Shown here in pieces: positions 5,949 through 57,685 of a DNA stretch of 64,000 nucleotides. The stretch is from positions 1-64,000 of the IMG/VR virus record IMGVR_UViG_3300029561_000002, one strand, 5' to 3'. Below the pieces are notes generated by a model that had not been told where the DNA came from, ran no database searches, and saw only the letters and a program-made list of their open reading frames with translations. The position numbers and the translations under genes were made by a program. This DNA is from a virus. Within the stretch, counting starts at the first letter, position 1. Each line of letters starts with the position of its first letter.

Positions 5949-6063
5949 TACGGTAAAACCAACAGGCTAGACCGATCATCGAAAAGCGGAAATGCCTTGC
6001 CGCCTGCCTGTTGATTTACATACATTTCAAGGCATCTTATATACGAAAGGCAGGTATTTTTCT

Positions 6064-6534
6064 ATGAAGTTTAAGGAACAATCCAAAAGTCTTAATATTC
6101 CAGTGGCAAGAGAACCTATTATATATTTTTTGCTGAATGGCGATGAAGTAGTTTATGTTGGACAGTCAATAACGGGACTTTGCCGACCTTATAGTCATTC
6201 CGATAAACAGTTTGACAATGTTTCAATTATTAGGTGTAAAAAAGAAGAATTGGATGATTTAGAAATATTTTACATTAGGAGATATATGCCAAAATACAAC
6301 AAAAGATGTATTGACGGTTCAAAAGATTTTTCTTTTTTAAAGGTTAAGGAAATCATCAGGAAAAATACTAATTTTGAACAATGCACGATTTTTGACATCA
6401 AAAGAATGATGAAAGTTATTGGGATTAAGGCATATGCGGTAAGAGATATGTTTTATATTTCAGCCGATGATACTGAAAAGCTTGTAGAATATACTAATAA
6501 TCATTTTGATGGATACAAGCTGGTGATAAATTAA
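6064..6534 (+). CDS. GIY-YIG-like nuclease domain protein (putative)
   Basis: IYFLLNGDEVVYVGQS ... FYIRRYMPKYN resembles the GIY/YIG/R/E/N pattern. Internal ATG of ORF 5992..6534. Confidence 0.45.
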   Translation: MKFKEQSKSLNIPVAREPIIYFLLNGDEVVYVGQSITGLCRPYSHSDKQFDNVSIIRCKKEELDDLEIFYIRRYMPKYNKRCIDGSKDFSFLKVKEIIRKNTNFEQCTIFDIKRMMKVIGIKAYAVRDMFYISADDTEKLVEYTNNHFDGYKLVIN

Positions 6535-6664
6535 TTGGTAAATTCAGTAGGCTAGGGTAGCTCCCGAAAAGTGTAAACCTTGATGCACCTGCCTACTGTT
6601 TTTATAAATCAAGGATTCTGGCATATTATGGAGATGCCAATGACCAACAAGGAGGTTATTTATT

Positions 6665-7642: not shown

Positions 7643-7763
7643 AGCAAGCCAAAATCCGTTTGAAATACCGTAGGCGATAATTTCCTCACGCAAACGATTC
7701 AAATTGATTCGAGCCAAAAACATTACAGTAATTGATTGTAAACTCAACATACAGGAGAAACAC

Positions 7764-9191: not shown

Positions 9192-10079
9192 ATGAAAAGG
9201 TGGAAAAAGCTTACAGTGATTTTGCTGGCAATGATTATGGCGCTTGCCATGGCGGTTCCGGCATCGGCGGCAACAGTTAAAATTAACAAAACGAAGGCAA
9301 CCATTTGCACAGGGCAGACATTGCAACTGAAGATGGTCGGAACGAAAGCAAAACCAAAATGGTCTAGCAACTCGAGAAATGTAATTGTGAATAGCGCTGG
9401 AAAAGTAACAGCAAAGGCCCGAGGAACAGCTACGATTATTGCTAAAATCGGGAAGAAGAGATATCGGTGTTTGGTGACAGTAGAAGCGCCGAGGATAAGC
9501 AACTCAAATATTTCACTGTACAAAGGAAAAACGGCACAGCTTAAAATGCTGAATACGAAGCAGAAATACAGATGGACTTCTTCAAATACCAAAGTTGCAA
9601 CAGTTTCGTCAACCGGTAAGATTAGCGGAAAAAGTGCCGGGACTGCTTATGTTTCCGCCAGAAGTGCGTCTGGTAAAACATTTAAGTGCAAAGTCACAGT
9701 CAAGAACACACCTAGCAAACTTAAGATGCTTTTACCAAATCAAAAAGAGTGTGGAGATGCAGATTTCTTTATTGAATATAATTCTCAAAGAAGTACGAAT
9801 GGTAAAACCGTACTTATGCAGTTATATAAACAATTTCCAATGGGATATATCAATTTTTCAGCAAATAATGTTGACCGGGGATTAATGACATATATCTATA
9901 TTGACGGAACACTCTGGGATCAAAATCATGGTACTTCTGTTAGTGGTGGTGGGTCATTGGACGACATTTATATAAAGCCTGGAACACATGTTGTTGAAAT
10001 GGTGCAATTTGCGAATAATAATCGTTATGGGAAAGTGAAATCGTATCGCAGAGCAATGTACAAAGTGACTTATAAATAA
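9192..10079 (+). CDS. Secreted protein with two Big_2-like Ig repeats
   Basis: Sec signal ..AMAVPASAAT. Two repeats match the bacterial Ig-like group 2 pattern (GQTLQLK...WSSSN..VATV...G.V.A...GTA.I). Strong RBS. Confidence 0.65.
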   Translation: MKRWKKLTVILLAMIMALAMAVPASAATVKINKTKATICTGQTLQLKMVGTKAKPKWSSNSRNVIVNSAGKVTAKARGTATIIAKIGKKRYRCLVTVEAPRISNSNISLYKGKTAQLKMLNTKQKYRWTSSNTKVATVSSTGKISGKSAGTAYVSARSASGKTFKCKVTVKNTPSKLKMLLPNQKECGDADFFIEYNSQRSTNGKTVLMQLYKQFPMGYINFSANNVDRGLMTYIYIDGTLWDQNHGTSVSGGGSLDDIYIKPGTHVVEMVQFANNNRYGKVKSYRRAMYKVTYK

Positions 10080-16797: not shown

Positions 16798-17019
16798 TGT
16801 TCTGATTGATTTATCATTCAAAACAGGTTATACTACCAATAGTCGCACAGGGATTGAACTTATGATGTATAATATCCTGTGTGGCTACGCACAAGTGAAG
16901 AGTGCAGACTGATTCTGCCGTGCATGAACGGAAGAGCTGTATGTCCCCGATGGGGCTGTTAGCAGCGGCACGAGTGGACAGTCAAAGAAAGAGTTGGGCA
17001 TAAAAACCCGACTCTTTTC

Positions 17020-22479: not shown

Positions 22480-23059
22480 TTCGGCGGAAGTCAAATTTAA
22501 GCCAAGAAAGGGAAAGAGCTTTTTAGTCGTCAGAAGTGACCGTTTCAGCGGAACACCGGACGATATCATTGTTGAGATCCCGAACAGACTCAAAGGTACG
22601 TTCCGGGAATGGAATTGGATAAAGGTTTCGGGAAGAATCCGTTCCAAATGGGTCAGAGCAGACCACCAAGAGAAAAAGTATATGTATCTGGAAGCATATG
22701 ATGTCAGCACGGAAGGAACGCTTCTTGTAAATACAGTAGAAATGACTGCAAATATTTGCAAGAAGCCGGTGCTGAGAAAAACACCGTTAGGAAGGACACT
22801 TTGTGAAATTTGCGTGGCAATCAATGGATACAGACGGTCAGAATATATTTCTTGTATTTCATGGAGAGATCTGGCGGTGAAAGCTTCTGAATGGAAAGTA
22901 GGTACAAAAGTTAGATTAAAGGGACGTATGCAGAGCCGTGATTATTGGAAAAAACAGTCAGATGGTTCTTATGTTAGAAAAACGGCATACGAAGTTTCGG
23001 TAATAGAGATGGAGGAAATCAAAGATGAAAAAGGTGACTTTGAAAAAACTGAGCGTTGA
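22436..23059 (+). CDS. Tandem OB-fold, SSB-like protein (putative)
   Basis: Two SSB-like halves (NRATLTGFVTDSAEVKF.. and NTVEMTANICKKPVLRKT..). Start is uncertain (22391 or 22436). Confidence 0.45.
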   Translation: MGDLNRATLTGFVTDSAEVKFKPRKGKSFLVVRSDRFSGTPDDIIVEIPNRLKGTFREWNWIKVSGRIRSKWVRADHQEKKYMYLEAYDVSTEGTLLVNTVEMTANICKKPVLRKTPLGRTLCEICVAINGYRRSEYISCISWRDLAVKASEWKVGTKVRLKGRMQSRDYWKKQSDGSYVRKTAYEVSVIEMEEIKDEKGDFEKTER

Positions 23060-25010
23060 AAATTATAAGAAATTTGAAGCAAGAGAATTTGATTTCGCCG
23101 GAAGAACAGAAGTTTCCGGAAGAAATAGACAGGGTAAAACTTCTCTGATGGATGCATATTTTGATGTTCTGACCGGAAAACTGGCAGACGGAACGCTTCC
23201 GAACAATATCCGCCGGAAGGTTGACGGTGAAGAAGTTGACGATCCGGTGGTGAGAGAACTGGTTATTGACGTTGACGGAATGGAATATGTTGTCCAGAAA
23301 AAGACCAAAAAGGGAAAATCATCAAATACGGTTGAATATTACGTCAACGGAATTAAGCGGAACAAAACCGAGTATATGGAGATTCTTAAAAGGATTGCCG
23401 ATCCTGATACGATTGCCATGTGCAGCAACGCCAGAGTGTTTTTGAACGAGATCCAGAAAGCAACAGCAAAAGCAAGGGAAACACTGGGAGGAATAGCTGG
23501 ATTCAGTGAATCACAGTTCAGAGCAGAGCATCCGGAATATGAATGGATAAAGAATGAAGGTGTGGAAGGAGATTCTATCGAAGAAATCTTAAAAGCCCGC
23601 AGAAGAGACCTGAGAAAAGCCAAGTCAGATGTTGATGATATTGCAAAGCAGATCAGAAAAGAGCAGAGCCGACAGGTTGAATGCGATGAAACACTTCCAG
23701 CGCAGAGGGACGATCTTCTTGACTTACTGAAAGAAAACGAGAAGCAGGAGAAAGTGCTCTGCGATGCTTCAAGAGAGTACGACCGGATATCTATCGAACT
23801 GGCAGGACTGAAGCGTTCAAGGGACGCACTGGTTGAGAAAGCCGAAAAATCAGCCAGGGAGAATCACGACAGAATAACTTCCTTATTATATACACTGAAA
23901 TCCGATAAGAAAAATGCTGAGAACAAGTTACGACTTGCCAGAATAGATCTGGAACACGCCAGCAAAGGGATTGAGCGACATAAGGCAGCACTGGCACAGG
24001 CCAAAAGCAAATATACAGAAGCATTAAAAGAGAAGTGGGGCGGAGATACCGAACTTACTGCAATCCGTGGAGAAGAATTTGATCAGGCATCAGCTGTTTG
24101 CCCGACTTGCGGACAGATGCTTCCAGAAGAGGCTGCAAAGCGAAAGTTTGAGTTTAATAAACAGACCAGAATCTCCAAAATGTTAGAAGAGAAAGAACAG
24201 TTTGAGAGAAACAAACGAGCCAAGTTGGAACAGATCACTGAGGACGGAAACGAAGCTTCAGAGGGATTAAAAACAGCGAATAAAGCAAAGAAAGAAGCTG
24301 AAGCAGCTATCGAAGCTGCCAAGAAAGAGATAACATCTCTGGCGCTTGAAATTGCAGAAACAGAAAAGGAAACAGAGAAACCGATTCCAAAACCGGATAT
24401 GTCTGGTGATGAAGAATACAAGGCTGTTTGCGACAAAATTTCAGCACTGGAAGAAAGTATCAACGGAATCGGAAACGGCGAAAATGACAGGATTTTGTTA
24501 AGCAACAACCGTCACTCTCTGGAAGCGAAGCTCAGAGATGTTGAAGCCAAGATTAAAACTCAGACTGCAAGGCTTGAAGAAAAAGCCGACAGCCTTGAAG
24601 CACTACAGGAAGAGCAGAAGAAACTTTCACAGAAACAGGCGGATATTCAGCAGAAAGTAGATCAGCTGACTGACTATTCCATTGAGAAAAATAAGGCACT
24701 GGCAGCAGTGATTAATCCGCACTTCAAACACTTCCACTTCCAGTTCCTTGACTACACACAGGACGGAGAACCGATGGAAACTTGCCGGATGATCTGCAAT
24801 GGCATTGATTACGCAAACGGTCTGAACCACAGTGATCGGATTCTTTGTGATATCGACCTTGCGATGGGGCTTCAGGAGATGAACGACTTACGGCTTCCGG
24901 TTTGGGTTGACGATACCGAAAGCATAAATTCGGACAGGATTCCAGAATTAGATACACAGATGATTTTGCTCAAGGTTTCTGAGGGTGAGTTGGAAGTAAA
25001 AGGAATTTAA
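23025..25010 (+). CDS. Rad50/SbcC-like coiled-coil ATPase
   Basis: Walker A GRNRQGKTS, a long coiled coil with a CPTCGQ hook-like motif, and Walker B-like LPVWVDDTES. Confidence 0.7.
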   Translation: MKKVTLKKLSVENYKKFEAREFDFAGRTEVSGRNRQGKTSLMDAYFDVLTGKLADGTLPNNIRRKVDGEEVDDPVVRELVIDVDGMEYVVQKKTKKGKSSNTVEYYVNGIKRNKTEYMEILKRIADPDTIAMCSNARVFLNEIQKATAKARETLGGIAGFSESQFRAEHPEYEWIKNEGVEGDSIEEILKARRRDLRKAKSDVDDIAKQIRKEQSRQVECDETLPAQRDDLLDLLKENEKQEKVLCDASREYDRISIELAGLKRSRDALVEKAEKSARENHDRITSLLYTLKSDKKNAENKLRLARIDLEHASKGIERHKAALAQAKSKYTEALKEKWGGDTELTAIRGEEFDQASAVCPTCGQMLPEEAAKRKFEFNKQTRISKMLEEKEQFERNKRAKLEQITEDGNEASEGLKTANKAKKEAEAAIEAAKKEITSLALEIAETEKETEKPIPKPDMSGDEEYKAVCDKISALEESINGIGNGENDRILLSNNRHSLEAKLRDVEAKIKTQTARLEEKADSLEALQEEQKKLSQKQADIQQKVDQLTDYSIEKNKALAAVINPHFKHFHFQFLDYTQDGEPMETCRMICNGIDYANGLNHSDRILCDIDLAMGLQEMNDLRLPVWVDDTESINSDRIPELDTQMILLKVSEGELEVKGI

Positions 25011-33358: not shown

Positions 33359-34732
33359 ATGAGAGATTTAATCATAGATTGCTTTGCCGGCGGTGGTGGG
33401 GCGTCTGTAGGAATCGAAATGGCGCTCGGAAGGCCAGTAGACATAGCGATCAATCACGACCCCGACGCTATCCTGATGCACAAGACGAATCACCCTGGAA
33501 CACTGCATCTGACAGAAGATATCTTCAAAGTAGACTTGCAGAAATATGTTGGAAATCAGCACGTAGCGTTGATGTGGGCTTCCCCGGACTGCACAAGCCA
33601 TTCAAAAGCAAAAGGCGGTCAGCCCCGTAAAAAGGGGCTTCGCATTCTTCCATGGGCTGTATACAAGCACGCAAAGGCAATTCTTCCAGATGTGATAATC
33701 ATGGAGAATGTAGAAGAAATACAACAATGGGGACCATTGGACGAGAAAGGGCATCCAATCAAAGAAAGAGCCGGTGAAGATTATCGAAAATTCATTTCAG
33801 CAATGGAAAATATCGGTTATGAATTTGACAGCCGGGAACTGGTAGCTGCGAATTATGGAGCGCCGACTACAAGAAAACGTTGGTATGCGGTGTTTCGTAG
33901 GGATGGAAAGCAGATAGTGTGGCCAAAGCCTACGCATAATCGTTTTGGGACAGACGGCCTGAAGCCATATGAGCAGTGTGGAGATTACATTGATTGGTCA
34001 GACTTAGGTAAAAGTATATTTGACCGTCCGAAACCACTGGCAGAAGCAACACAGAAGCGCATTGCAAATGGAATCAAGAAATATATCGTTGATAATCCAG
34101 AGCCGTATATTGTACGGAATAAAGATGCGCTGGCATTTATCATTCAGTATCATGGAGAAACCAGACAAGGTGATTCCAGAGGGCAATTGCTGACTGAACC
34201 GATAAAAACCATTGACACCTCAAACAGATACGGACTTGTGACAGCTTTCATCACGAAATATTACAAAACCGGTATCGGTCAAGGATGCGACGAACCACTG
34301 CATACAATAACCACATCACCCGGACACTTCGGCGTGATATCTGCTTTTCTGGTTAAATATTATGGAACGGGATGCGGACAGGTACTCAACGAACCGCTCG
34401 GAACCATTACCACAAAAGACAGGTTCGGACTGGTAAATGTTCTGGTTGATATTCATGGAGAGAAATACATCATATCAGATATTTTTCTCAGAATGCTAAA
34501 GCCGGAAGAATTAAAGGTGATGCAGGGATTTCCAAAAGATTACATTATTGATCGGGATTACAAATGGAGAAATTACCCGATTGCAAAACAAGTAGCGAGA
34601 ATTGGAAATAGTGTTGTGCCGGTTATGGCAGAAGTGCTTGTGAAAGCTAATTGCCCGTATCTGAAAGTCGGAGAGCGAAAAGCTGCACCGGTGATTTATA
34701 TTCAGAATAATGGACAGGTATCATTTGGATAA
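33359..34732 (+). CDS. DNA (cytosine-5)-methyltransferase
   Basis: Motif I DCFAGGGG, motif IV-like ASPDCTSHSKA, ENVEE, and C-terminal GNSVVP. Confidence 0.8.
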   Translation: MRDLIIDCFAGGGGASVGIEMALGRPVDIAINHDPDAILMHKTNHPGTLHLTEDIFKVDLQKYVGNQHVALMWASPDCTSHSKAKGGQPRKKGLRILPWAVYKHAKAILPDVIIMENVEEIQQWGPLDEKGHPIKERAGEDYRKFISAMENIGYEFDSRELVAANYGAPTTRKRWYAVFRRDGKQIVWPKPTHNRFGTDGLKPYEQCGDYIDWSDLGKSIFDRPKPLAEATQKRIANGIKKYIVDNPEPYIVRNKDALAFIIQYHGETRQGDSRGQLLTEPIKTIDTSNRYGLVTAFITKYYKTGIGQGCDEPLHTITTSPGHFGVISAFLVKYYGTGCGQVLNEPLGTITTKDRFGLVNVLVDIHGEKYIISDIFLRMLKPEELKVMQGFPKDYIIDRDYKWRNYPIAKQVARIGNSVVPVMAEVLVKANCPYLKVGERKAAPVIYIQNNGQVSFG

Positions 34733-36389: not shown

Positions 36390-36487
36390 TCACATTCTTA
36401 TTAGGATTCACCCTTGGAACCATATTCGGAGCGACTGGTCTTGTATGCGTGGCGATCATGTACAACAAGCATCATCCAGACGAATAG
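36386..36487 (+). CDS. Small single-TM protein (33 aa)
   Basis: AAGGAGG RBS. Sequence MITFLLGFTLGTIFGATGLVCVAIM. Confidence 0.35.
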   Translation: MITFLLGFTLGTIFGATGLVCVAIMYNKHHPDE

Positions 36488-36501
36488 AAAGGAGCAACGG
36501 T

Positions 36502-36816
36502 ATGCTGACAAGGAACAAAAAGCTGAAAGACTACGGTATTCCGGCAGAGGACATTGAAAAGCTGAACATGATGCTGAAAGACTTCCCGGCAGAGTACGGC
36601 TACCTGCTTACCAGTGCTGCCTTGTCAGCTTGCCCGAAGAACACGGTGATAGCGGATATGGTTATTGAGAATATCCTACACCGGAAAAGCTACAGGAAAA
36701 TCAGCAAAGAAAGATATATCCCGATGAATCCGAAAGACTTCTACGGATACAGACGCAAGACCGTCGCTGTACTATATGAGAGAATGCGGTTGTTGGGAGT
36801 GTGGGAGGAAAAATAA
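36502..36816 (+). CDS. Hypothetical protein (possible transcription regulator)
   Basis: AAAGGAG RBS 7 nt before the internal ATG of ORF 36367..36816. Confidence 0.35.
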   Translation: MLTRNKKLKDYGIPAEDIEKLNMMLKDFPAEYGYLLTSAALSACPKNTVIADMVIENILHRKSYRKISKERYIPMNPKDFYGYRRKTVAVLYERMRLLGVWEEK

Positions 36817-42509: not shown

Positions 42510-44234
42510 ATGAACGTTTATCGAACAAGAGAAGTGCTGAAAACTTGCAGCATTTTTGACTTGAAATTAAAAGTGGCTTTCTATGCAAGGGTAAGCACGG
42601 AATCAGAAGACCAACAAGTTTCTATACATCACCAGGACGAATATTACAGAAACTTCATTGCTAAAAATAAAAACTGGGTATTTGTTGGCGCGTACATTGA
42701 CAACGGAATATCGGGAATACGAACTGAGAAAAGGGACGAATTTCAACGCATGATGGCAGATGCAAAAACTGGGAAGATCGATATGATTGTAACGAAAGAA
42801 ATTACCAGATTTGCGAGAAATACGTTAGATAGTATAAGATATACAAGGGAATTGCTAATGTATGGTGTATGCGTATGGTTTCAAAATGACAACATCAACA
42901 CGATTGACGAAGATAGCGAATTAAGACTTACCATAATGTCCGGAATTGCCCAAGATGAATCAAGAAAGCTCTCCAATCGAATAAAATTCGGACATGCACA
43001 GTCGATAAAAAATGGTGTAGTCCTCGGCGCTCGAATATACGGATACATCAAAAAAGACGGAAAACTTACAATTGATCCCAAAACAGCTCCAATGGTAAAA
43101 GAGATATTTGAAAAATATTCTACAGGAGAATGGTCTACATCCACTATTGAGAAATACCTGTACAAAAAAGGATATCGAAATTACAAAGGTGGAAAACTCA
43201 GCCGAGATAATATCAAAAAGATAATCAAGAACCCGAAATACAAAGGTTATTATTGCGGCGGTAAAGTAAAAGTTGTCGATATGTTCACAAAAAAGCAAGA
43301 GTTTTTGCCAGAGGACGAATGGACAATGTACAAAGATGACGGTAACCATGTTCCACAGATTGTAGATGAATCTGTATGGGATAAAGCAAACGTTATTATG
43401 CAAACACGGAGCGATGCAATCAAATCCCACAGAACGTCTTTCAAACAAAACAATTTGTTTACCGGGTATATCTTTTGCGGTAACGATGGAGCGCCGTACT
43501 GGATGAAGCAGCACACTATAAGAGGGCGTGAAGATGCAAGATGGGTATGCAGCTATCGCATAAAAAACGGAGCGCAAAGCTGCAACTCTTTTGGTATACG
43601 TGAGAAAGAATTAAGGGCAATGCTTGCAGACCTTATCAATAAATCCGGGGATATCCAAATAGCTATTGAAAAATATATAAGTTTGGCTGAAAGGAACATA
43701 GACTTCAGCAACGATGGAGCTGAGATAAGCCGACTTAAAAACATGGTTCTTCAGTTGGAGAAAAAGAAAGACAAACTTCTCGATCTTAATCTGGATGGAA
43801 TCATAACAAACTCTGAATATCTTGAAAAAAATGAAAAATTCAAGAATGAAATCCAAGACATAAGCAATAAACTTTCCGAACTGGAATCGAAAGAAGAAGC
43901 CAATAAAGATTCCCATTTGAAATTAAAAAAAATCGGAAAGATATTAAATGATTTGCAAGGAGTTGGCCCAGAAGATATTACCAAAACGGTTCTGGGAGAA
44001 TTTTTGGACAAAATAGTAATAAATCCAAAACGCCCGCAGGAGTGCGAAATTTTGTTCTTTTTAAAGACCGGAGATGTAAAAAAAAAGTCAATAATCGAGC
44101 AGGATAAACAAGGCTGTTCTGAATACTTTTTTTTAAATAAGTTCTCAGAACGACACGCCGTATTTTACAGGAAAATCAACTATGTGGATGGATGCGAAAA
44201 GGAATTTAACTACACTTACGCATTTGCAATCTAA
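42510..44234 (+). CDS. Large serine recombinase (integrase)
   Basis: N-terminal resolvase domain (FYARVSTESEDQ..., KEITRFARN), recombinase domain, Cys cluster and C-terminal coiled coil. 574 aa. Confidence 0.85.
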   Translation: MNVYRTREVLKTCSIFDLKLKVAFYARVSTESEDQQVSIHHQDEYYRNFIAKNKNWVFVGAYIDNGISGIRTEKRDEFQRMMADAKTGKIDMIVTKEITRFARNTLDSIRYTRELLMYGVCVWFQNDNINTIDEDSELRLTIMSGIAQDESRKLSNRIKFGHAQSIKNGVVLGARIYGYIKKDGKLTIDPKTAPMVKEIFEKYSTGEWSTSTIEKYLYKKGYRNYKGGKLSRDNIKKIIKNPKYKGYYCGGKVKVVDMFTKKQEFLPEDEWTMYKDDGNHVPQIVDESVWDKANVIMQTRSDAIKSHRTSFKQNNLFTGYIFCGNDGAPYWMKQHTIRGREDARWVCSYRIKNGAQSCNSFGIREKELRAMLADLINKSGDIQIAIEKYISLAERNIDFSNDGAEISRLKNMVLQLEKKKDKLLDLNLDGIITNSEYLEKNEKFKNEIQDISNKLSELESKEEANKDSHLKLKKIGKILNDLQGVGPEDITKTVLGEFLDKIVINPKRPQECEILFFLKTGDVKKKSIIEQDKQGCSEYFFLNKFSERHAVFYRKINYVDGCEKEFNYTYAFAI

Positions 44235-45940: not shown

Positions 45941-46318
45941 TTACTGCTCTAAATAATTTATACATGCGACTTGTGGCAAGCCCCGGAAAAACTCAGAAAA
46001 ACCGCCGTCAGTAATATTATATTGCCGATCAAAAACCGGGATAATCTGCCCGTTTTTAAGCTCCATGCAAGACAGCTGTAAAAATCCGTCTTTTTTCGTC
46101 GACCGGTGCAAGGCGTACCGCATGACGGACGCGTCACCAGATCGCGTTGTTACCGGTGGCAGATCATACCAGATCAGCGGGACAGTACCGGAAGAAACCG
46201 CATTAAACACTTGCGCAGCGTCCTTTTTTGCGGTTGAATTGATCTTGTCAACAACGGAAAAATCACCGCTTTTTATAGCGGTGATGGTTTGCTTTTGCGT
46301 GGCTTTTCTAATTTTCAT
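45941..46318 (-). CDS. Hypothetical protein (last gene of the minus-strand island)
   Basis: AAAGGAG RBS before the internal ATG at 46318. Terminator hairpin at about 45927-45950. Confidence 0.5.
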   Translation of the reverse strand: MKIRKATQKQTITAIKSGDFSVVDKINSTAKKDAAQVFNAVSSGTVPLIWYDLPPVTTRSGDASVMRYALHRSTKKDGFLQLSCMELKNGQIIPVFDRQYNITDGGFSEFFRGLPQVACINYLEQ

Positions 46319-46472
46319 TATAATGTTCTCCTTTTGTTCTCTCCTGGTAAAATGCAATTAATGTTATTTCTATCGGTTCTTTACTGGAAAAGTAACGAAA
46401 ATTTCTAAATTTATTGAAATCATGTTCTAAGTGGTTTTCTTCGATATAGTTTATTATTTGCATTAAGTTCAT
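46308..46472 (-). CDS. Small hypothetical protein (54 aa)
   Basis: Unlisted ORF MNLMQIINYIEENHLEHDF.. that overlaps the next start. Weak RBS. Confidence 0.3.
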   Translation of the reverse strand: MNLMQIINYIEENHLEHDFNKFRNFRYFSSKEPIEITLIAFYQERTKGEHYNEN

Positions 46473-46567
46473 TTTTTTTCTTTCTTCCCTGTACCCATGG
46501 GAGCCGGGTTTTTATTAGATGCCGAAAAAGTATTGACTATTTAAGGAAAAAATGATATATTGTGATA

Positions 46568-46640
46568 GCTGGATGCTATTCGAATTTTTCGAATGCATTT
46601 TCTGGAGCGGTCTAACGTGCGTTGTTAGATCGCTTTTTTA
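46568..46640 (+). ncRNA. Candidate small RNA 0 (promoter plus intrinsic terminator)
   Basis: TTGACT (46533-38), 17 nt spacer, TGaTATATT (-10 hexamer at 46556-61). 10-bp terminator stem 46607-16/46624-33 followed by TTTTTT. Confidence 0.45.
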
Positions 46641-46693
46641 TCGGTCCATCAATTTAACTTGACTTTTCCAGCTGCATGATGTATTATGATTGT

Positions 46694-46830
46694 ATCAGCT
46701 AGCAACAGTTGCTGGTTCTTAACGTACCATGATTCCGTTGAGAGTCGCCACAGTCTACGGTGTGGTGTTGAGTTGAAAAGCATGTTTATAAGGATATGAA
46801 AAAAGGCTATTATATTTTTTGTAATGGTCT
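46694..46830 (+). ncRNA. Candidate small RNA 1 (conserved 64-nt block at 46718-46781)
   Basis: TTGACT (46659-64), 17 nt spacer, TATTAT (46682-87). The block is paralogous to 46894-46957. The 3' end is uncertain (T-run at 46829-37). Confidence 0.4.
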
Positions 46831-46873
46831 TTTTTTTATTGACTTTTTCCTGTAATCGTGCTATATTATTAAT

Positions 46874-47018
46874 CAGTAACACATGTGTTACTTTTCAACG
46901 GGCCACGATTCCGTTGGAAGTCGTTCCGATCAATGGCGAAACGTTGAGTTGAAAAATATTGTTATATATTTGCTAAAATGCAAAAAGCGGGAAGGCGTGA
47001 CAGATGTCACGCCTTTTC
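46874..47018 (+). ncRNA. Candidate small RNA 2 (conserved 64-nt block at 46894-46957)
   Basis: TTGACT (46839-44), 17 nt spacer, TGcTATATT (46862-67). Terminator GGCGTGAC/GTCACGCC (46994-47013) followed by TTTT. Confidence 0.45.
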
Positions 47019-47234
47019 ACTGTTTTCTATAATCTCTCGGTACATTCTTGCGCCGCCGTCCCATTCACTCCTGCCGTTCAAATACTCTTCGGCGGTTTCT
47101 TCGCGAACTTCTCCGGAATTTGCGAAAAGTGCAATTTTCCCGGTGCTTTTCTGCACAACCTCGGTTGCTGATAGTGTGCAAAAAGGCTCACAGCTTTCGC
47201 GGAAATTCTCCGCGCGGTCCATCAGCTCTATCAT
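47007..47234 (-). CDS. Hypothetical protein (75 aa)
   Basis: ATGA-coupled to the upstream small ORF. Same frame as track ORF 47007..47300. Confidence 0.45.
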   Translation of the reverse strand: MIELMDRAENFRESCEPFCTLSATEVVQKSTGKIALFANSGEVREETAEEYLNGRSEWDGGARMYREIIENSEKA

Positions 47235-47353
47235 TTTTTTAGCTGCGGGATTGAAAACGCTTTCAAATCCTCGTCGGTAAGTACGTTTTTCACGTACCAC
47301 TGAATATTTTTTACCGCTTCTGATTTTTTTAATAACAATTCCTCTTTTCTCAT
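47231..47353 (-). CDS. Small hypothetical protein (40 aa)
   Basis: GGAGGA RBS 7 nt before the ATG at 47353. Confidence 0.4.
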   Translation of the reverse strand: MRKEELLLKKSEAVKNIQWYVKNVLTDEDLKAFSIPQLKK

Positions 47354-47449
47354 GTTTTTTTCCTCCATTTTTGATTTATTTTATTATACCATTTTTTTGG
47401 CTGGTATTAAAGGGCCGCCGGGGAAATGCTCCCCGGTACGCTTACTGGT

Positions 47450-47818: not shown

Positions 47819-47899
47819 AATTTCCCTTTCTGGTCTGCCATCATCAGCACCGGGAGACCGTCCCGCGGTGGACGCCCCTAAAATCTGAGGCGTTTCGGC

Positions 47900-48109
47900 T
47901 TATGCTTCTATTGTTCGCCCGCGGCCGTCCATAAATACCTCCCCGGCGGGCCACTGGCAAAGCTTTGCCCGTCCCTCTTTTACAACACGCTCATTATAGC
48001 GCCCGGCGTGCTGAAGTGCTTTGTATGTGATTGTTTTAGCGGTTTTGTTCGTGATTTCGAATGTTAAACCGCTTTCATAGTATCTTTTTCCGATTTCAAA
48101 TTTTTTCAT
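47900..48109 (-). CDS. Hypothetical protein (69 aa)
   Basis: ORF track. AGGTAAAAGGA RBS region. Confidence 0.5.
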   Translation of the reverse strand: MKKFEIGKRYYESGLTFEITNKTAKTITYKALQHAGRYNERVVKEGRAKLCQWPAGEVFMDGRGRTIEA

Positions 48110-50363: not shown

Positions 50364-50780
50364 ATGAGAAAATTGGCAGAAGCAGATTTGAATATCGTCG
50401 CAGCATACATGGACGATGACATCAGAGAACAAGTAGCCAGCGAACTTGCACCATGTGAGCCGGGAGAATTTCTGGCAAGGTACTGCGAACTGGTACCGGA
50501 ATTTGAGGATTTGTTAGAAGATGAGTTCTCGATTGAACTAGAAAATGGTGAATTTTTCAAAGTCAATGAAGACGAGGAAAATTTCACTGAAGAAGAGAGA
50601 GCTGATATAGAAAAACATCAGCTCGTAAAAAAATCCGCTAAATGCGGAACTTTAACAGAAACATTTGCCCGGAATTATGCAAGGGTTCCGGAGAAATTAA
50701 TAAAAAAGCTCACGCCGGAAGAACTCGGGGAGCTTGTGGACGCTTTCTACAAATGTTACGAGGACGGAAAGAGGGCATGA
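50364..50780 (+). CDS. Hypothetical acidic protein
   Basis: AAAGGAGG RBS. Confidence 0.5.
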   Translation: MRKLAEADLNIVAAYMDDDIREQVASELAPCEPGEFLARYCELVPEFEDLLEDEFSIELENGEFFKVNEDEENFTEEERADIEKHQLVKKSAKCGTLTETFARNYARVPEKLIKKLTPEELGELVDAFYKCYEDGKRA

Positions 50781-56620: not shown

Positions 56621-56692
56621 AGCGCATTGGCGAAGTGGCAACGCATCGGACTTTGACTCCGCTATTCGTGGGTTCGAATCCCACATGCGCCG
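56621..56692 (+). tRNA. tRNA-Gln (anticodon TTG)
   Basis: Hand-folded cloverleaf. Acceptor AGCGCAT/ATGCGCC (A1.C72 mismatch), anticodon loop CT-TTG-AC, T arm GTGGG-TTCGAAT-CCCAC. Confidence 0.7.
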
Positions 56693-56923
56693 CTCTGCAT
56701 CGGATTTCGCCTTTCCTCTGATGCAGGTTGGATTTTCTTTTTCCCTTTGCCACCTATCACAACGGTGATGATTAAAGGAACTGTCAAATGTTCCGGGTGG
56801 CTTTGCCTTAGTTGGCAAGATTAATTTCTTCTATGGTTTACCTTTGTTGCAGCTGGCGGTCAAGAACTGCAACAGTAGTAAAAAGACAGATATCGCAGCG
56901 ACCCTGTATCTTTTTGCTACTCA

Positions 56924-56997
56924 GGAAACTTAGCTCAGTTGGTTAGAGCAGCCGGCTCATAACCGGTCGGCCCTGGGTTCGAACCCCAGAGTTTCCA
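56924..56997 (+). tRNA. tRNA-Met (anticodon CAT), elongator-like
   Basis: Perfect acceptor GGAAACT/AGTTTCC, D arm TAGCTCAGTTGGTTAGAGCA, anticodon loop CT-CAT-AA, T arm CTGGG-TTCGAAC-CCCAG. Confidence 0.85.
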
Positions 56998-57296
56998 TTT
57001 CTCCCAAAGCTGTCCATCCGTTTTATGGATAGAAAAAACTGCCGAATGTGTGTATGTGGGTTGTTTTTCAGAAGGTACGTAACGGCGTAGCCGGAGTGAA
57101 AAGACAACTTCCCGTTCGGTTCTGTCTCTGAGTTGAATATGTCGCCAATGAGTGCACGCTGACGACAGGGAGTTTTCAAGAGGCATTTCAGAAATAATCC
57201 TCCGAAACAACTCCGTGGGACTGGCACGGATGAAAACAGTCTAGTGGAAAGCATAACACGATAAACCTATTGCTAACCCGGTACAATCCGGGTTAA

Positions 57297-57368
57297 GGCA
57301 GGATGGAGAAGTGGAATCTCACAAGGCTCATATCCTTGAGAACGGCGGTTCAAATCCGTCTCCTGCAA
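57297..57368 (+). tRNA. tRNA with CAT anticodon (Met or Ile2) and a G1.A72 mismatch
   Basis: Acceptor GGCAGGA/TCCTGCA (mismatch at 1-72), D stem GAGA/TCTC, anticodon stem CAAGG/CCTTG with loop CT-CAT-AT, T arm GGCGG-TTCAAAT-CCGTC. Confidence 0.7.
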
Positions 57369-57551
57369 TTAATTCGTTCGTTCTATACTGTCAGTGCACA
57401 GGCGGTCTATGGTTCAAGCGGATTAAACCCATGGGAAAAGGTTGATGTTTATCCTGGTAACTGCTGGACAGTACGAAAAACATTATCATATGTTGTGCAA
57501 ATGGAAATCATCTCATTCATTTACCGAGGTGATCAGCCGTGGTAAGCGGCA

Positions 57552-57622
57552 TGGAATGTAGCTCAGTGGTAGAGTACACTACAAAAGCGGTGAGGTCGCA
57601 GGTTCGATTCCTGCCATTCCGT
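57552..57622 (+). tRNA. tRNA-like gene with a non-canonical anticodon arm (anticodon undetermined)
   Basis: Normal acceptor, D arm (TAGCTCAGTGGTAGAGT) and T arm (GCAGG-TTCGATT-CCTGC). The anticodon arm is 16 nt (CACTACAAAAGCGGTG): a 4-bp stem, an 8-nt loop and no U33. Confidence 0.5.
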
Positions 57623-57685
57623 TTCCGGTAAATTGCCATTACCGGAAAGCATTTCCAAAATGCTCAAATTTACCTTCTGATTGGT

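Follow-up and report, generated by a model that had tools for sequence, protein, structure and literature searches.

Which role could three small RNA units play that a gut phage encodes side by side in a gene-free gap of its genome? The question is raised by a DNA stretch of 64,000 nucleotides, here referred to as the window (positions 1 to 64,000 of the IMG/VR virus record IMGVR_UViG_3300029561_000002), which is a phage of human-gut Firmicutes. For positions 46533 to 47018, an earlier note made from the sequence alone had described three promoters, each followed by a small RNA (units 0, 1 and 2), and had offered as speculative explanations an anti-CRISPR or repeat mimic made of RNA (CRISPR stands for short palindromic repeats that are clustered and regularly interspaced), an antisense regulator or a type III antitoxin-like RNA. 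Our analysis suggests that units 1 and 2 are viral regulatory RNAs resembling CRISPR RNAs (crRNAs), so-called Cracr RNAs, and that they are directed, together with the antisense RNA unit 0, against the regulation of host type I-C CRISPR-Cas systems (Cas, CRISPR-associated), an explanation that we consider likely. The assignment of units 1 and 2 is made because their repeat handle and their pseudo-spacers match host RNAs and host promoter boxes, and the cassette as a whole looks like an RNA-only way to disarm host CRISPR immunity.

All three promoters were recovered by a consensus scan where the earlier note had placed them on the plus strand: they are sigma-70-like, lie within 46533-47018, combine a TTGACT -35 box with a 17-nt spacer and carry a TGn extension in two cases. 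Between 44000 and 50000, 23 promoter-like sites were seen, compared to 14.7 expected. The units presumably transcribed from these promoters have the following anatomy, with P0, P1 and P2 denoting hairpins:

46533-46561, plus strand: unit 0 promoter, TTGACT-17-TATATT with TGn; 10/12 consensus matches
46568-46641, plus strand: unit 0 RNA of approximately 74 nt; the 5' 40 nt (46568-46607) are antisense to a host leader and are followed by the terminator
46659-46687, plus strand: unit 1 promoter, TTGACT-17-TATTAT
approximately 46694-46837, plus strand: unit 1 as a whole
46694-46716, plus strand: unit 1 P0, the 5'-terminal hairpin at the inferred transcription start (AUCAGC...GCUGGU)
46718-46742, plus strand: unit 1 P1, a helix of 7 bp (CUUAACG/CGUUGAG) whose 11-nt loop includes the invariant CCAUGAUU
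46744-46779, plus strand: unit 1 pseudo-repeat, composed of GUC, P2 (46746-46767, loop GUCUACGG) and the tail UUGAGUUGAAAA
46780-46803, plus strand: unit 1 pseudo-spacer, GCATGTTTATAAGGATATG...
approximately 46805-46837, plus strand: unit 1 intrinsic terminator, GGCTATTA/TAATGGTC followed by T8
46839-46867, plus strand: unit 2 promoter, TTGACT-17-TATATT with TGn
approximately 46874-47018, plus strand: unit 2 as a whole
46874-46918, plus strand: unit 2 5' domain, composed of P0 (46875-46892) and P1
46894-46900 and 46912-46918, plus strand: unit 2 P1, UUCAACG paired with CGUUGGA; the loop contains CCACGAUU
46920-46955, plus strand: unit 2 pseudo-repeat, composed of GUC, P2 (46922-46943, loop AUCAAUGG) and the tail UUGAGUUGAAAA, with the handle at 46945-46955
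46956-46981, plus strand: unit 2 pseudo-spacer, ATATTGTTATATATTTGCTAAAATGC
46989-47018, plus strand: unit 2 terminator, bidirectional and shared with a convergent minus-strand gene; 13-bp stem with 7 GC pairs

Unit 0 does end in a hairpin followed by T6 and unit 2 in a terminator, as previously noted; the stems comprise 14 and 13 bp, and the terminator of unit 1 had been missed. Unit 0 folds with -29.1 kcal/mol (z -6.1), and the fold of the whole unit 1 has a z of -4.35. The ungapped blocks of units 1 and 2 (46718-46781 and 46894-46957), which are located 176 nt apart, are identical at 43 of 64 positions, exactly as first counted. A self-comparison of the window at offsets of 100 to 400 nt reached a maximum of 45/64 and did so in two places only, compared to a background mean of 17 (standard deviation 3.7). 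Ungapped self-similarity over 64 nt was also found at 7674 (offset 310; 45/64) and 13258 (offset 198; 43/64), both of which could represent repeats inside coding genes.

Units 1 and 2 are members of a structured RNA family. Pattern scans of IMG/VR yielded 44 copies in 40 loci, with 23 distinct sequences on approximately 40 gut viral contigs, and nearly every copy has a terminator and a consensus promoter located around 7 nt ahead of a conserved AUCAG start. The family order is P0, P1, AGU, P2 (7 bp, loop AUCAAUGG or a variant thereof), the near-invariant tail UUGAGUUGAAA(A/U), a variable AU-rich segment and the terminator, which follows the handle at a distance of 25 to 40 nt. The earlier note had assumed a closing helix formed by CTTAAC or TTCAAC with GTTGAG; instead, these segments pair with the nearest CGTTGAG or CGTTGGA and form the local helix P1, in which double changes are found in 7/7 pairs across 22 distinct homologs. 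The variable 19-nt hairpin described between the invariant runs proved to be P2 (7 bp, 8-nt loop), which covaries in 5/7 pairs across 22 distinct sequences. In these sequences, 95% of the cells pair, compared to 27-52% in controls with slid partners. P0 is formed in every subtype from differing sequences, and we infer that it acts as a 5' stabilizer.

The near-invariance of the tail is real, since a scan that did not require the tail added only two contigs, with one substitution; another tail variant is present in the locus L080. The P1 loop is complementary to the P2 loop (CC/GG and GAU/AUC), also in the short-loop variant GUCUGG, and the contacts do not vary; the two loops could kiss. The loci L001 and L003 each carry a single unit, which is a crossover of units 1 and 2, and the flanking context changes between contigs, with the cassette remaining unchanged. 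A covariance model built from the phage RNAs scores unit 1 with 97 bits and unit 2 with 94 bits. In agreement with the earlier note, which knew of no matching RNA family, the Rfam 15 covariance models gave no credible match in 46300-47200, neither at E up to 10 nor in gathering mode. BLASTN of the cassette and two other subtypes against the GenBank phages in INPHARED found no match either, and a literature search for the tail sequence returned nothing relevant. A mimic of the Cas9 single guide RNA or trans-activating crRNA was considered and rejected, as no fitting repeat:anti-repeat or nexus architecture is present.

P2 and the tail together form a degenerate type I-C CRISPR repeat. Type I-C repeats of gut viruses end in GTGAGTTGAAAT in the excerpt of the PMC10651486 supplement, and the I-C repeat of Bifidobacterium thermacidophilum has the same ending (PMC4521832). 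A metagenome scan identified arrays with this ending at CRISPR spacing on at least 120 human-gut contigs; their repeats are 32-33 nt long and consist of GTC, a stem and the common ending, as in GTCACGCTCCACGTGAGCGTGTGAGTTGAAAT. In the host locus L264, the genes cas3-cas5c-cas8c-cas7-cas4-cas1c-cas2 adjoin such an array. The layout of the phage RNAs is GUC, a 7-bp stem, the loop, the stem and (U)UGAGUUGAAA(A/U), and they share with real I-C repeats the 5' GUC, the stem architecture and the 11-nt handle UGAGUUGAAA(A/U), whose counterpart in unit 1 is formed by the last 11 nt of the pseudo-repeat (46769-46779). In contrast to the real repeats, the phage P2 has one extra U before the handle and a larger loop of 8 nt; the stem and loop sequences are unlike every real repeat recovered, and the phage-only covariance model matches array repeats only weakly, with 17-25 bits. 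A search of genome contigs for TTGAGTTGAAA at CRISPR spacing, a pattern one base off the real repeats (GTGAG versus TTGAG), returned only cyanobacterial arrays and unrelated tandem repeats.

The arrays also carry spacers against the phage, which bears out the CRISPR link drawn in the earlier note. When 2,440 array spacers were compared by BLAST with the window and the viral loci, 29 near-full-length matches were obtained, seven of which are located in the window:

6394-6422: protospacer
9307-9338: protospacer
16840-16868: protospacer
22862-22894: protospacer
24516-24547: protospacer
33371-33402: protospacer
36485-36515: protospacer

Two of the spacer matches in the window extend over 29-32 nt with 100% identity. 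TTT forms the 5' flank of 4/7 window protospacers and of 20/29 overall, as expected of the protospacer adjacent motif (PAM) of a type I system. All protospacers except one (28/29) are found in this gut phage group, and most of the loci carry the RNA or the unit 0 cassette; the remaining ones, L189 and L191, lack the RNA and are related to the window phage, whose integrase is identical to theirs. Judging from these matches, the gut I-C arrays target these phages.

The relationship between phage and host RNAs became visible only by BLAST of the phage tails and by scoring without every sixth position. BLAST against the host loci led to positions 1685-1701 of L264, upstream of cas3, where a solitary degenerate repeat with a handle (GTCAGATGGAAGTCTGTGAGTTGAAAA) is followed by ATATTATTATATATTTGTTAAGG and a terminator. 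The repeats of the crRNA-like host RNAs end in ..GTGAGTTGAAAA, and their handle, TGAGTTGAAAA, is identical to that of the phage. Over its first 17 nt, the L264 pseudo-spacer is identical to that of the L001-type phage RNA, and position 6 is the only one at which unit 2 of the window deviates. Directly ahead of the L264 promoter (TTGACA-17-TATTAT, -35 at 1803), there are two boxes, namely TTT-ATATTGTTATTCATTTGG at 1747 and TTT-ATATTATTATTAATTTGTTAAAAG at 1775, a layout that is known for the host crRNA-like RNAs CreR and CreA (10.1101/2023.03.10.532045). Further regions upstream of cas3 were fetched via Cas3 homologs, the closest named one being that of Blautia schinkii (81% identical). Altogether, at least nine host variants possess such a solitary element, and PAM-flanked self-targets next to the -35 box are present in six of them. 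In the P0019-type I-C loci (L326-L330), the CRISPR array is located directly upstream of the solitary crRNA-like element and cas3, and is consequently found on the 5' side of the operon. Phage and host RNAs pair up as follows:

unit 2, L001 and L004b: host loci L264, L316 and L340 (B. schinkii genome), 27/28 with handle (L340 26/27)
unit 1: host locus L341, 24/25 with handle, E 2e-5
L002b, L003 and L005b: host locus L348, 22/24

The 27/28 identity of the unit 2 handle and pseudo-spacer is seen in L264 and also in L316-L325. The pseudo-spacers agree at 19-20/24 positions for the unit 2 type (L264/L340), at 18-19/24 for the unit 1 type (L341) and at 22/24 for the L002b type (L348); unit 1 itself shares 18 of the first 24 nt with the L341-type host pseudo-spacer ACATGTTTATAAGGTTATAG. 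No P1-like element was found in the host loci, and, as regards a pairing of the invariant P1 loop with cas mRNA start regions, the complement of the loop is not enriched in the I-C loci.

In Cascade, every sixth base of the crRNA is flipped out, and every sixth position was ignored in the target scoring, which leaves 20 non-6n positions. Unit 2 matches the TTT-ATATTATTATTAATTTGTTAAAAG box at 19/20 of these positions, compared to at most 16-17 for shuffled sequences, and the TTT-ATATTGTTATTCATTTGG box at 17/20. Over the first of these boxes (L264 1775-1798), positions 1-10 except 6 (G versus A), 13-17 and 19-23 match, and over the second one (1747-1770) all of positions 1-10. The L001 RNA has mismatches to the L264 box at positions 11, 12, 18 and 24, to which unit 2 adds position 6. 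For unit 1, TTT-GCATTATTATATGGTTAA beside the promoter in L341 is a candidate target. At some positions, namely 22-23 in unit 2 and 1 in unit 1, the boxes are matched by the phage RNA but not by the host RNA, which speaks for selection acting on the pairing with the target, in addition to shared ancestry.

These matches bear on two other explanations. Units 1 and 2 could be pure repeat decoys of the Racr type, which soak up Cas5c and Cas7, with the sequence behind the tail being a mere linker to the terminator. The pseudo-repeat and the handle are indeed the most conserved parts, several subtypes lack an identified promoter target, and in having a solitary repeat-like element, a strong promoter and an anti-CRISPR (acr) gene close by, the units show hallmarks of Racrs (PMC10651486). 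Like the Racrs, among them RacrIC1, which is located next to AcrIC5, the phage units place a repeat-like hairpin and a handle downstream of a strong promoter and lie away from cas genes, with an AcrIC5 homolog in the neighborhood, and competition for Cas proteins is to be expected. However, Racrs are close copies of repeats, and RacrIC1 matches 29/34 positions (PMC10651486), whereas the phage RNAs keep only the GUC, the stem architecture and the 11-nt handle and have an 8-nt loop, an extra U and a functional-looking pseudo-spacer; a promoter within 250 bp and co-location with acr were found, but similarity to the repeat over its whole length was not. Moreover, the segment behind the handle is near-identical to host pseudo-spacers in three subtypes, for which PAM-flanked promoter boxes exist, and the mismatches sit at positions 6, 12 and 18. 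The solitary repeat units listed in the excerpt of the Racr paper do not include the family, and neither the exact tail nor unit 0 has a match in the excerpt of its supplement (PMC10651486). A pure decoy is consequently rather unlikely. The repeat mimic proposed at first stands insofar as a degenerate I-C repeat with an 11-nt handle is present, but the RNAs would be more than a mimic, as the pseudo-spacers had been overlooked.

Alternatively, the cassette might be a non-functional relic of captured I-C regulatory DNA of the host. Phage and host share stretches of 25-34 nt of handle and pseudo-spacer, and the island in which the cassette resides is variable and absent from relatives with an identical integrase. 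Against this, each unit is precisely bounded by a consensus promoter and a terminator, the covariation of P1 and P2 extends over approximately 23 distinct sequences from 40 contigs, nothing in the host corresponds to the 5' domain, unit 0 possesses its own promoter and terminator and lies on the antisense strand, and the units recombine and yet persist. We regard a relic as very improbable.

If units 1 and 2 are crRNA-like regulators, Cas5c of the host would recognize the hairpin and its 3' flank and cut at the base of the hairpin, and the product, consisting of the handle and the pseudo-spacer, would be loaded into Cascade. The pseudo-spacer would then pair partly, beside the TTT PAM, with the promoter boxes just upstream of cas3, to which the host's own CreR/CreA-like crRNA-like RNA would bind as well. 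Cascade bound without cutting would hold the promoter shut, and the decoy would additionally contend for Cas proteins with immune crRNAs. According to the pairings described above, unit 2 may be tuned to the locus type of L264 and Blautia schinkii and unit 1 to that of L341.

Unit 0 had been grouped with the other two small RNAs in the earlier note. It does have a promoter-terminator unit of its own, but it is a different kind of RNA, which is antisense to a host transcript. It is limited to this cassette lineage and is kept with the cassette in L001-L005, L080 and L188. By BLAST, its 5' 19 nt are antisense to L264 1904-1922 (18/19, the mismatch being a G-U pair), and with the sense strand of the host leader, its first 40 nt can pair almost without interruption (-46.5 kcal/mol), compared to a mean of -19 and a best value of -30.4 kcal/mol for shuffled unit 0 duplexes. 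The best 12 of 34,786 host-locus windows, with both strands included, all represent this region in L264-type and B. schinkii loci; the next unrelated site reaches -36.6 (mean -17.5, standard deviation 4.0) and the L341 leader -36.2. A putative loop-pairing segment of unit 0 and the host leader is GCUGGAUG/CAUCCAGC.

The leader (L264 1838-1950) is conserved across host variants and is also found in L340, L341, L348 and L333. It consists of a mini-ORF-like AUGAAAAAG (ORF, open reading frame), a hairpin, CUCAUCAUAG and a long hairpin, rich in AU and variable in its loop, plus a U-run; the stem of the hairpin between AUGAAAAAG and CUCAUCAUAG covaries between loci. A DUF3892-like ORF of 89 amino acids and then cas3 are located downstream. 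The leader is possibly a CreT-like toxin RNA or a cas leader. In the transcript that the promoter under the control of the crRNA-like RNA is expected to yield, the unit 0 site occupies approximately nt 50-90, and unit 0 is a candidate for a second layer that acts on the transcript itself: pairing of its 5' 40 nt with the transcript of the same promoter would lead to post-transcriptional silencing. In this respect, unit 0 resembles trans-encoded antisense RNAs that neutralize toxin RNAs in the style of type I antitoxins; the features in common are a short, strongly expressed RNA and near-continuous complementarity of approximately 40 nt to a small structured target. In contrast to the type I antitoxin logic, however, the antisense RNA comes from the phage and its predicted target, whose toxicity is putative, from a CRISPR-Cas locus of the host. 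It is tempting to speculate, though we do so tentatively, that the three units form one RNA-only module that hits a single host regulatory node at two levels, namely the promoter, which two guide-like RNAs for two I-C variants would hold shut by reprogramming the Cascade of the host, and its transcript, via a base-pairing antisense RNA that would neutralize what gets past the first level.

The same accessory region, outside of the RNA cassette, contains a further gene that relates to type I-C systems:

50364-50780, plus strand: AcrIC5-like anti-CRISPR protein gene, 138 amino acids, Pfam PF22147

This ORF starts 3.4 kb downstream of the cassette and matches AcrIC5 (PF22147) over residues 7-42 with E 5.7e-9 and 36.4 bits, compared to a cut-off of 27. 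With 138 amino acids, it is roughly double the size of the AcrIC5 model (53 positions) and may therefore be a fusion or an extended form. An AcrIC5 annotation is also present in L188, and no AcrIC5-like genes were found near the other family members within their short flanks. AcrIC5 blocks DNA binding by Cascade. With this gene close to the cassette, the region looks like a locus directed against type I-C. Acting together with this protein, the RNAs would allow the phage to have interference blocked and the back-up response of the host to Cascade inhibition suppressed, which fits the idea that phages inhibiting Cascade must silence the back-up circuit of the host.

Several points weigh against crRNA-like regulation by units 1 and 2. 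The evidence base consists entirely of metagenomic sequence. Neither the conserved P0-P1 domain nor the conserved P2 loop is matched by anything in the host RNAs, and both lie outside the model's account; the extra U between P2 and the handle, compared to real repeats, makes cleavage by Cas5c less certain; and the action of AcrIC5 on Cascade could also block the decoy-loaded complex. The likeness of phage and host pseudo-spacers could stem from recent common descent alone. The first promoter-target test, which used the exact prefix behind the PAM, gave no signal above AT-rich shuffles; the pseudo-spacers are AT-rich, and their weaker matches (15-17/20) overlap with those of shuffled sequences. 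Unit 1 matches its L341 box at only 13/15 of the first informative positions, a site found by eye, and the L015, L023 and L056 subtypes had no host partner in a limited sample; three of approximately seven subtypes are paired. Finally, the controlled promoter may drive either a toxin RNA or the cas operon. The P0-P1 domain, whose loop is predicted to kiss the loop of the repeat hairpin, might be a new structural add-on, which controls processing by Cas5c or lets the decoy complex escape from AcrIC5.

Cracr RNAs are defined by a degenerate repeat with the cognate handle and by PAM-proximal pairing of at least 9 bp to a cas or creT promoter, and type I-C is among the subtypes predicted for them (10.1101/2024.10.29.618823). 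Like these RNAs, the phage units are encoded outside of a cas locus, possess a degenerate repeat with the handle of the host and a pseudo-spacer that resembles host CreR/CreA, and have a partial match at a PAM-flanked host promoter; two RNAs for two variants of one subtype are found in one phage, and an Acr protein is co-encoded. In contrast to the Cracr RNAs, which are parts of array-like transcripts, units 1 and 2 each extend from their own promoter to their own terminator, and the terminator takes the place of a second pseudo-repeat, so that no mini-array is formed. The host RNAs of these loci are alike in this respect, and the missing second pseudo-repeat is therefore regarded as a property of the lineage and not as a ground for exclusion. 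Two further differences are the conserved, covarying P0-P1 5' domain, of a kind that is not mentioned in the preprint, and the antisense RNA unit 0, as the preprint mentions no antisense RNAs (10.1101/2024.10.29.618823). With the host CreR/CreA RNAs (10.1101/2023.03.10.532045), the phage RNAs share the handle UGAGUUGAAAA, an identical or nearly identical pseudo-spacer, a terminator and the target boxes by the -35 box. In the host RNAs, encoded upstream of cas3, the pseudo-repeat hairpin comprises 4 bp (CAGA/UCUG) and P0-P1 is missing, whereas the hairpin of the phage copies comprises 7 bp and covaries, and their promoters conform to the consensus.

If crRNA-like regulation by units 1 and 2 is correct, RNA anti-CRISPRs would be extended to the abundant type I-C systems of human-gut Lachnospiraceae, and one phage would possess, beside an AcrIC5-like protein, a guide mimic for each of two host variants. 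The covarying 5' domain on a pseudo-repeat and the antisense RNA against the controlled transcript would be new relative to Cracr RNAs, and either of them alone would add a mechanism to the known anti-defense strategies. On the host side, the analysis points to a family of I-C regulatory crRNA-like RNAs and to a conserved small leader upstream of cas3. The phage, the host locus, the target boxes and the PAM are all concrete enough for testing.

The surroundings of the cassette bear on a further explanation, namely that the RNAs are regulators of the phage itself. An integrase, a terminase, transfer RNAs (tRNAs) and a terL relative mark the window as phage DNA, and the cassette occupies a 530-bp gene-free gap between minus-strand ORFs of a small accessory island beside the integrase:

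42510-44234: large serine integrase
47007-47368, minus strand: gene convergent with unit 2, ORFs of 45 and 97 amino acids with a frameshift in an A-run near 47236-47242
51717: terS-like gene
56621-57623, plus strand: cluster of four tRNAs (Gln, two Met and one with an odd anticodon loop)
60207: terL, with distant relatives in Clostridium and Eggerthella phages

The content of the island varies, as relatives with an identical integrase have other genes there and lack the RNAs. Near the cassette, neither cas genes nor ORFs with family matches were found, and no toxin-like gene or tandem repeats are present at it. The gene convergent with unit 2 is intact in relatives such as L004 (ORF of 110-120 amino acids) and comes after the RNA terminator in 27/40 family loci; it has no Pfam or PHROG match.

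According to this explanation, the units would be antisense RNAs to the island, immunity RNAs like P1 C4 or P4 CI, or type III antitoxin-like RNAs. Their position in a minus-strand accessory island beside the integrase and the small structured nature of RNAs with conserved loops would be in line with it. However, no credible coding gene lies opposite the cassette, and the proposed antisense role towards the island operon is not supported. The idea of a type III antitoxin fails as well, because there is no tandem array or toxin-like gene and the two copies, 176 nt apart, have promoters and terminators of their own. In addition, there is no Rfam match, sites complementary to the invariant tail do not exceed chance in the window, no PAM-flanked targets of the pseudo-spacers were found in the phage itself, and the contig context differs while the cassette is constant. 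Regulation within the phage is consequently hardly probable at all.

Other structured RNAs were found in the phage genome. The same minus-strand island contains a type II hammerhead ribozyme (Rfam RF02276, 58.8 bits compared to a gathering score of 37), which is flanked by ORFs of 69 and 122 amino acids, and elsewhere the genome contains one RAGATH-18 RNA, scoring 75 bits, as well as two int-alpA RNAs with 45 and 57 bits:

47829-47900, minus strand: type II hammerhead ribozyme
47900-48109: flanking ORF, 69 amino acids
47450-47818: flanking ORF, 122 amino acids
3-75, 5960-6032 and 6545-6614, plus strand: RAGATH-18 and int-alpA RNA sites

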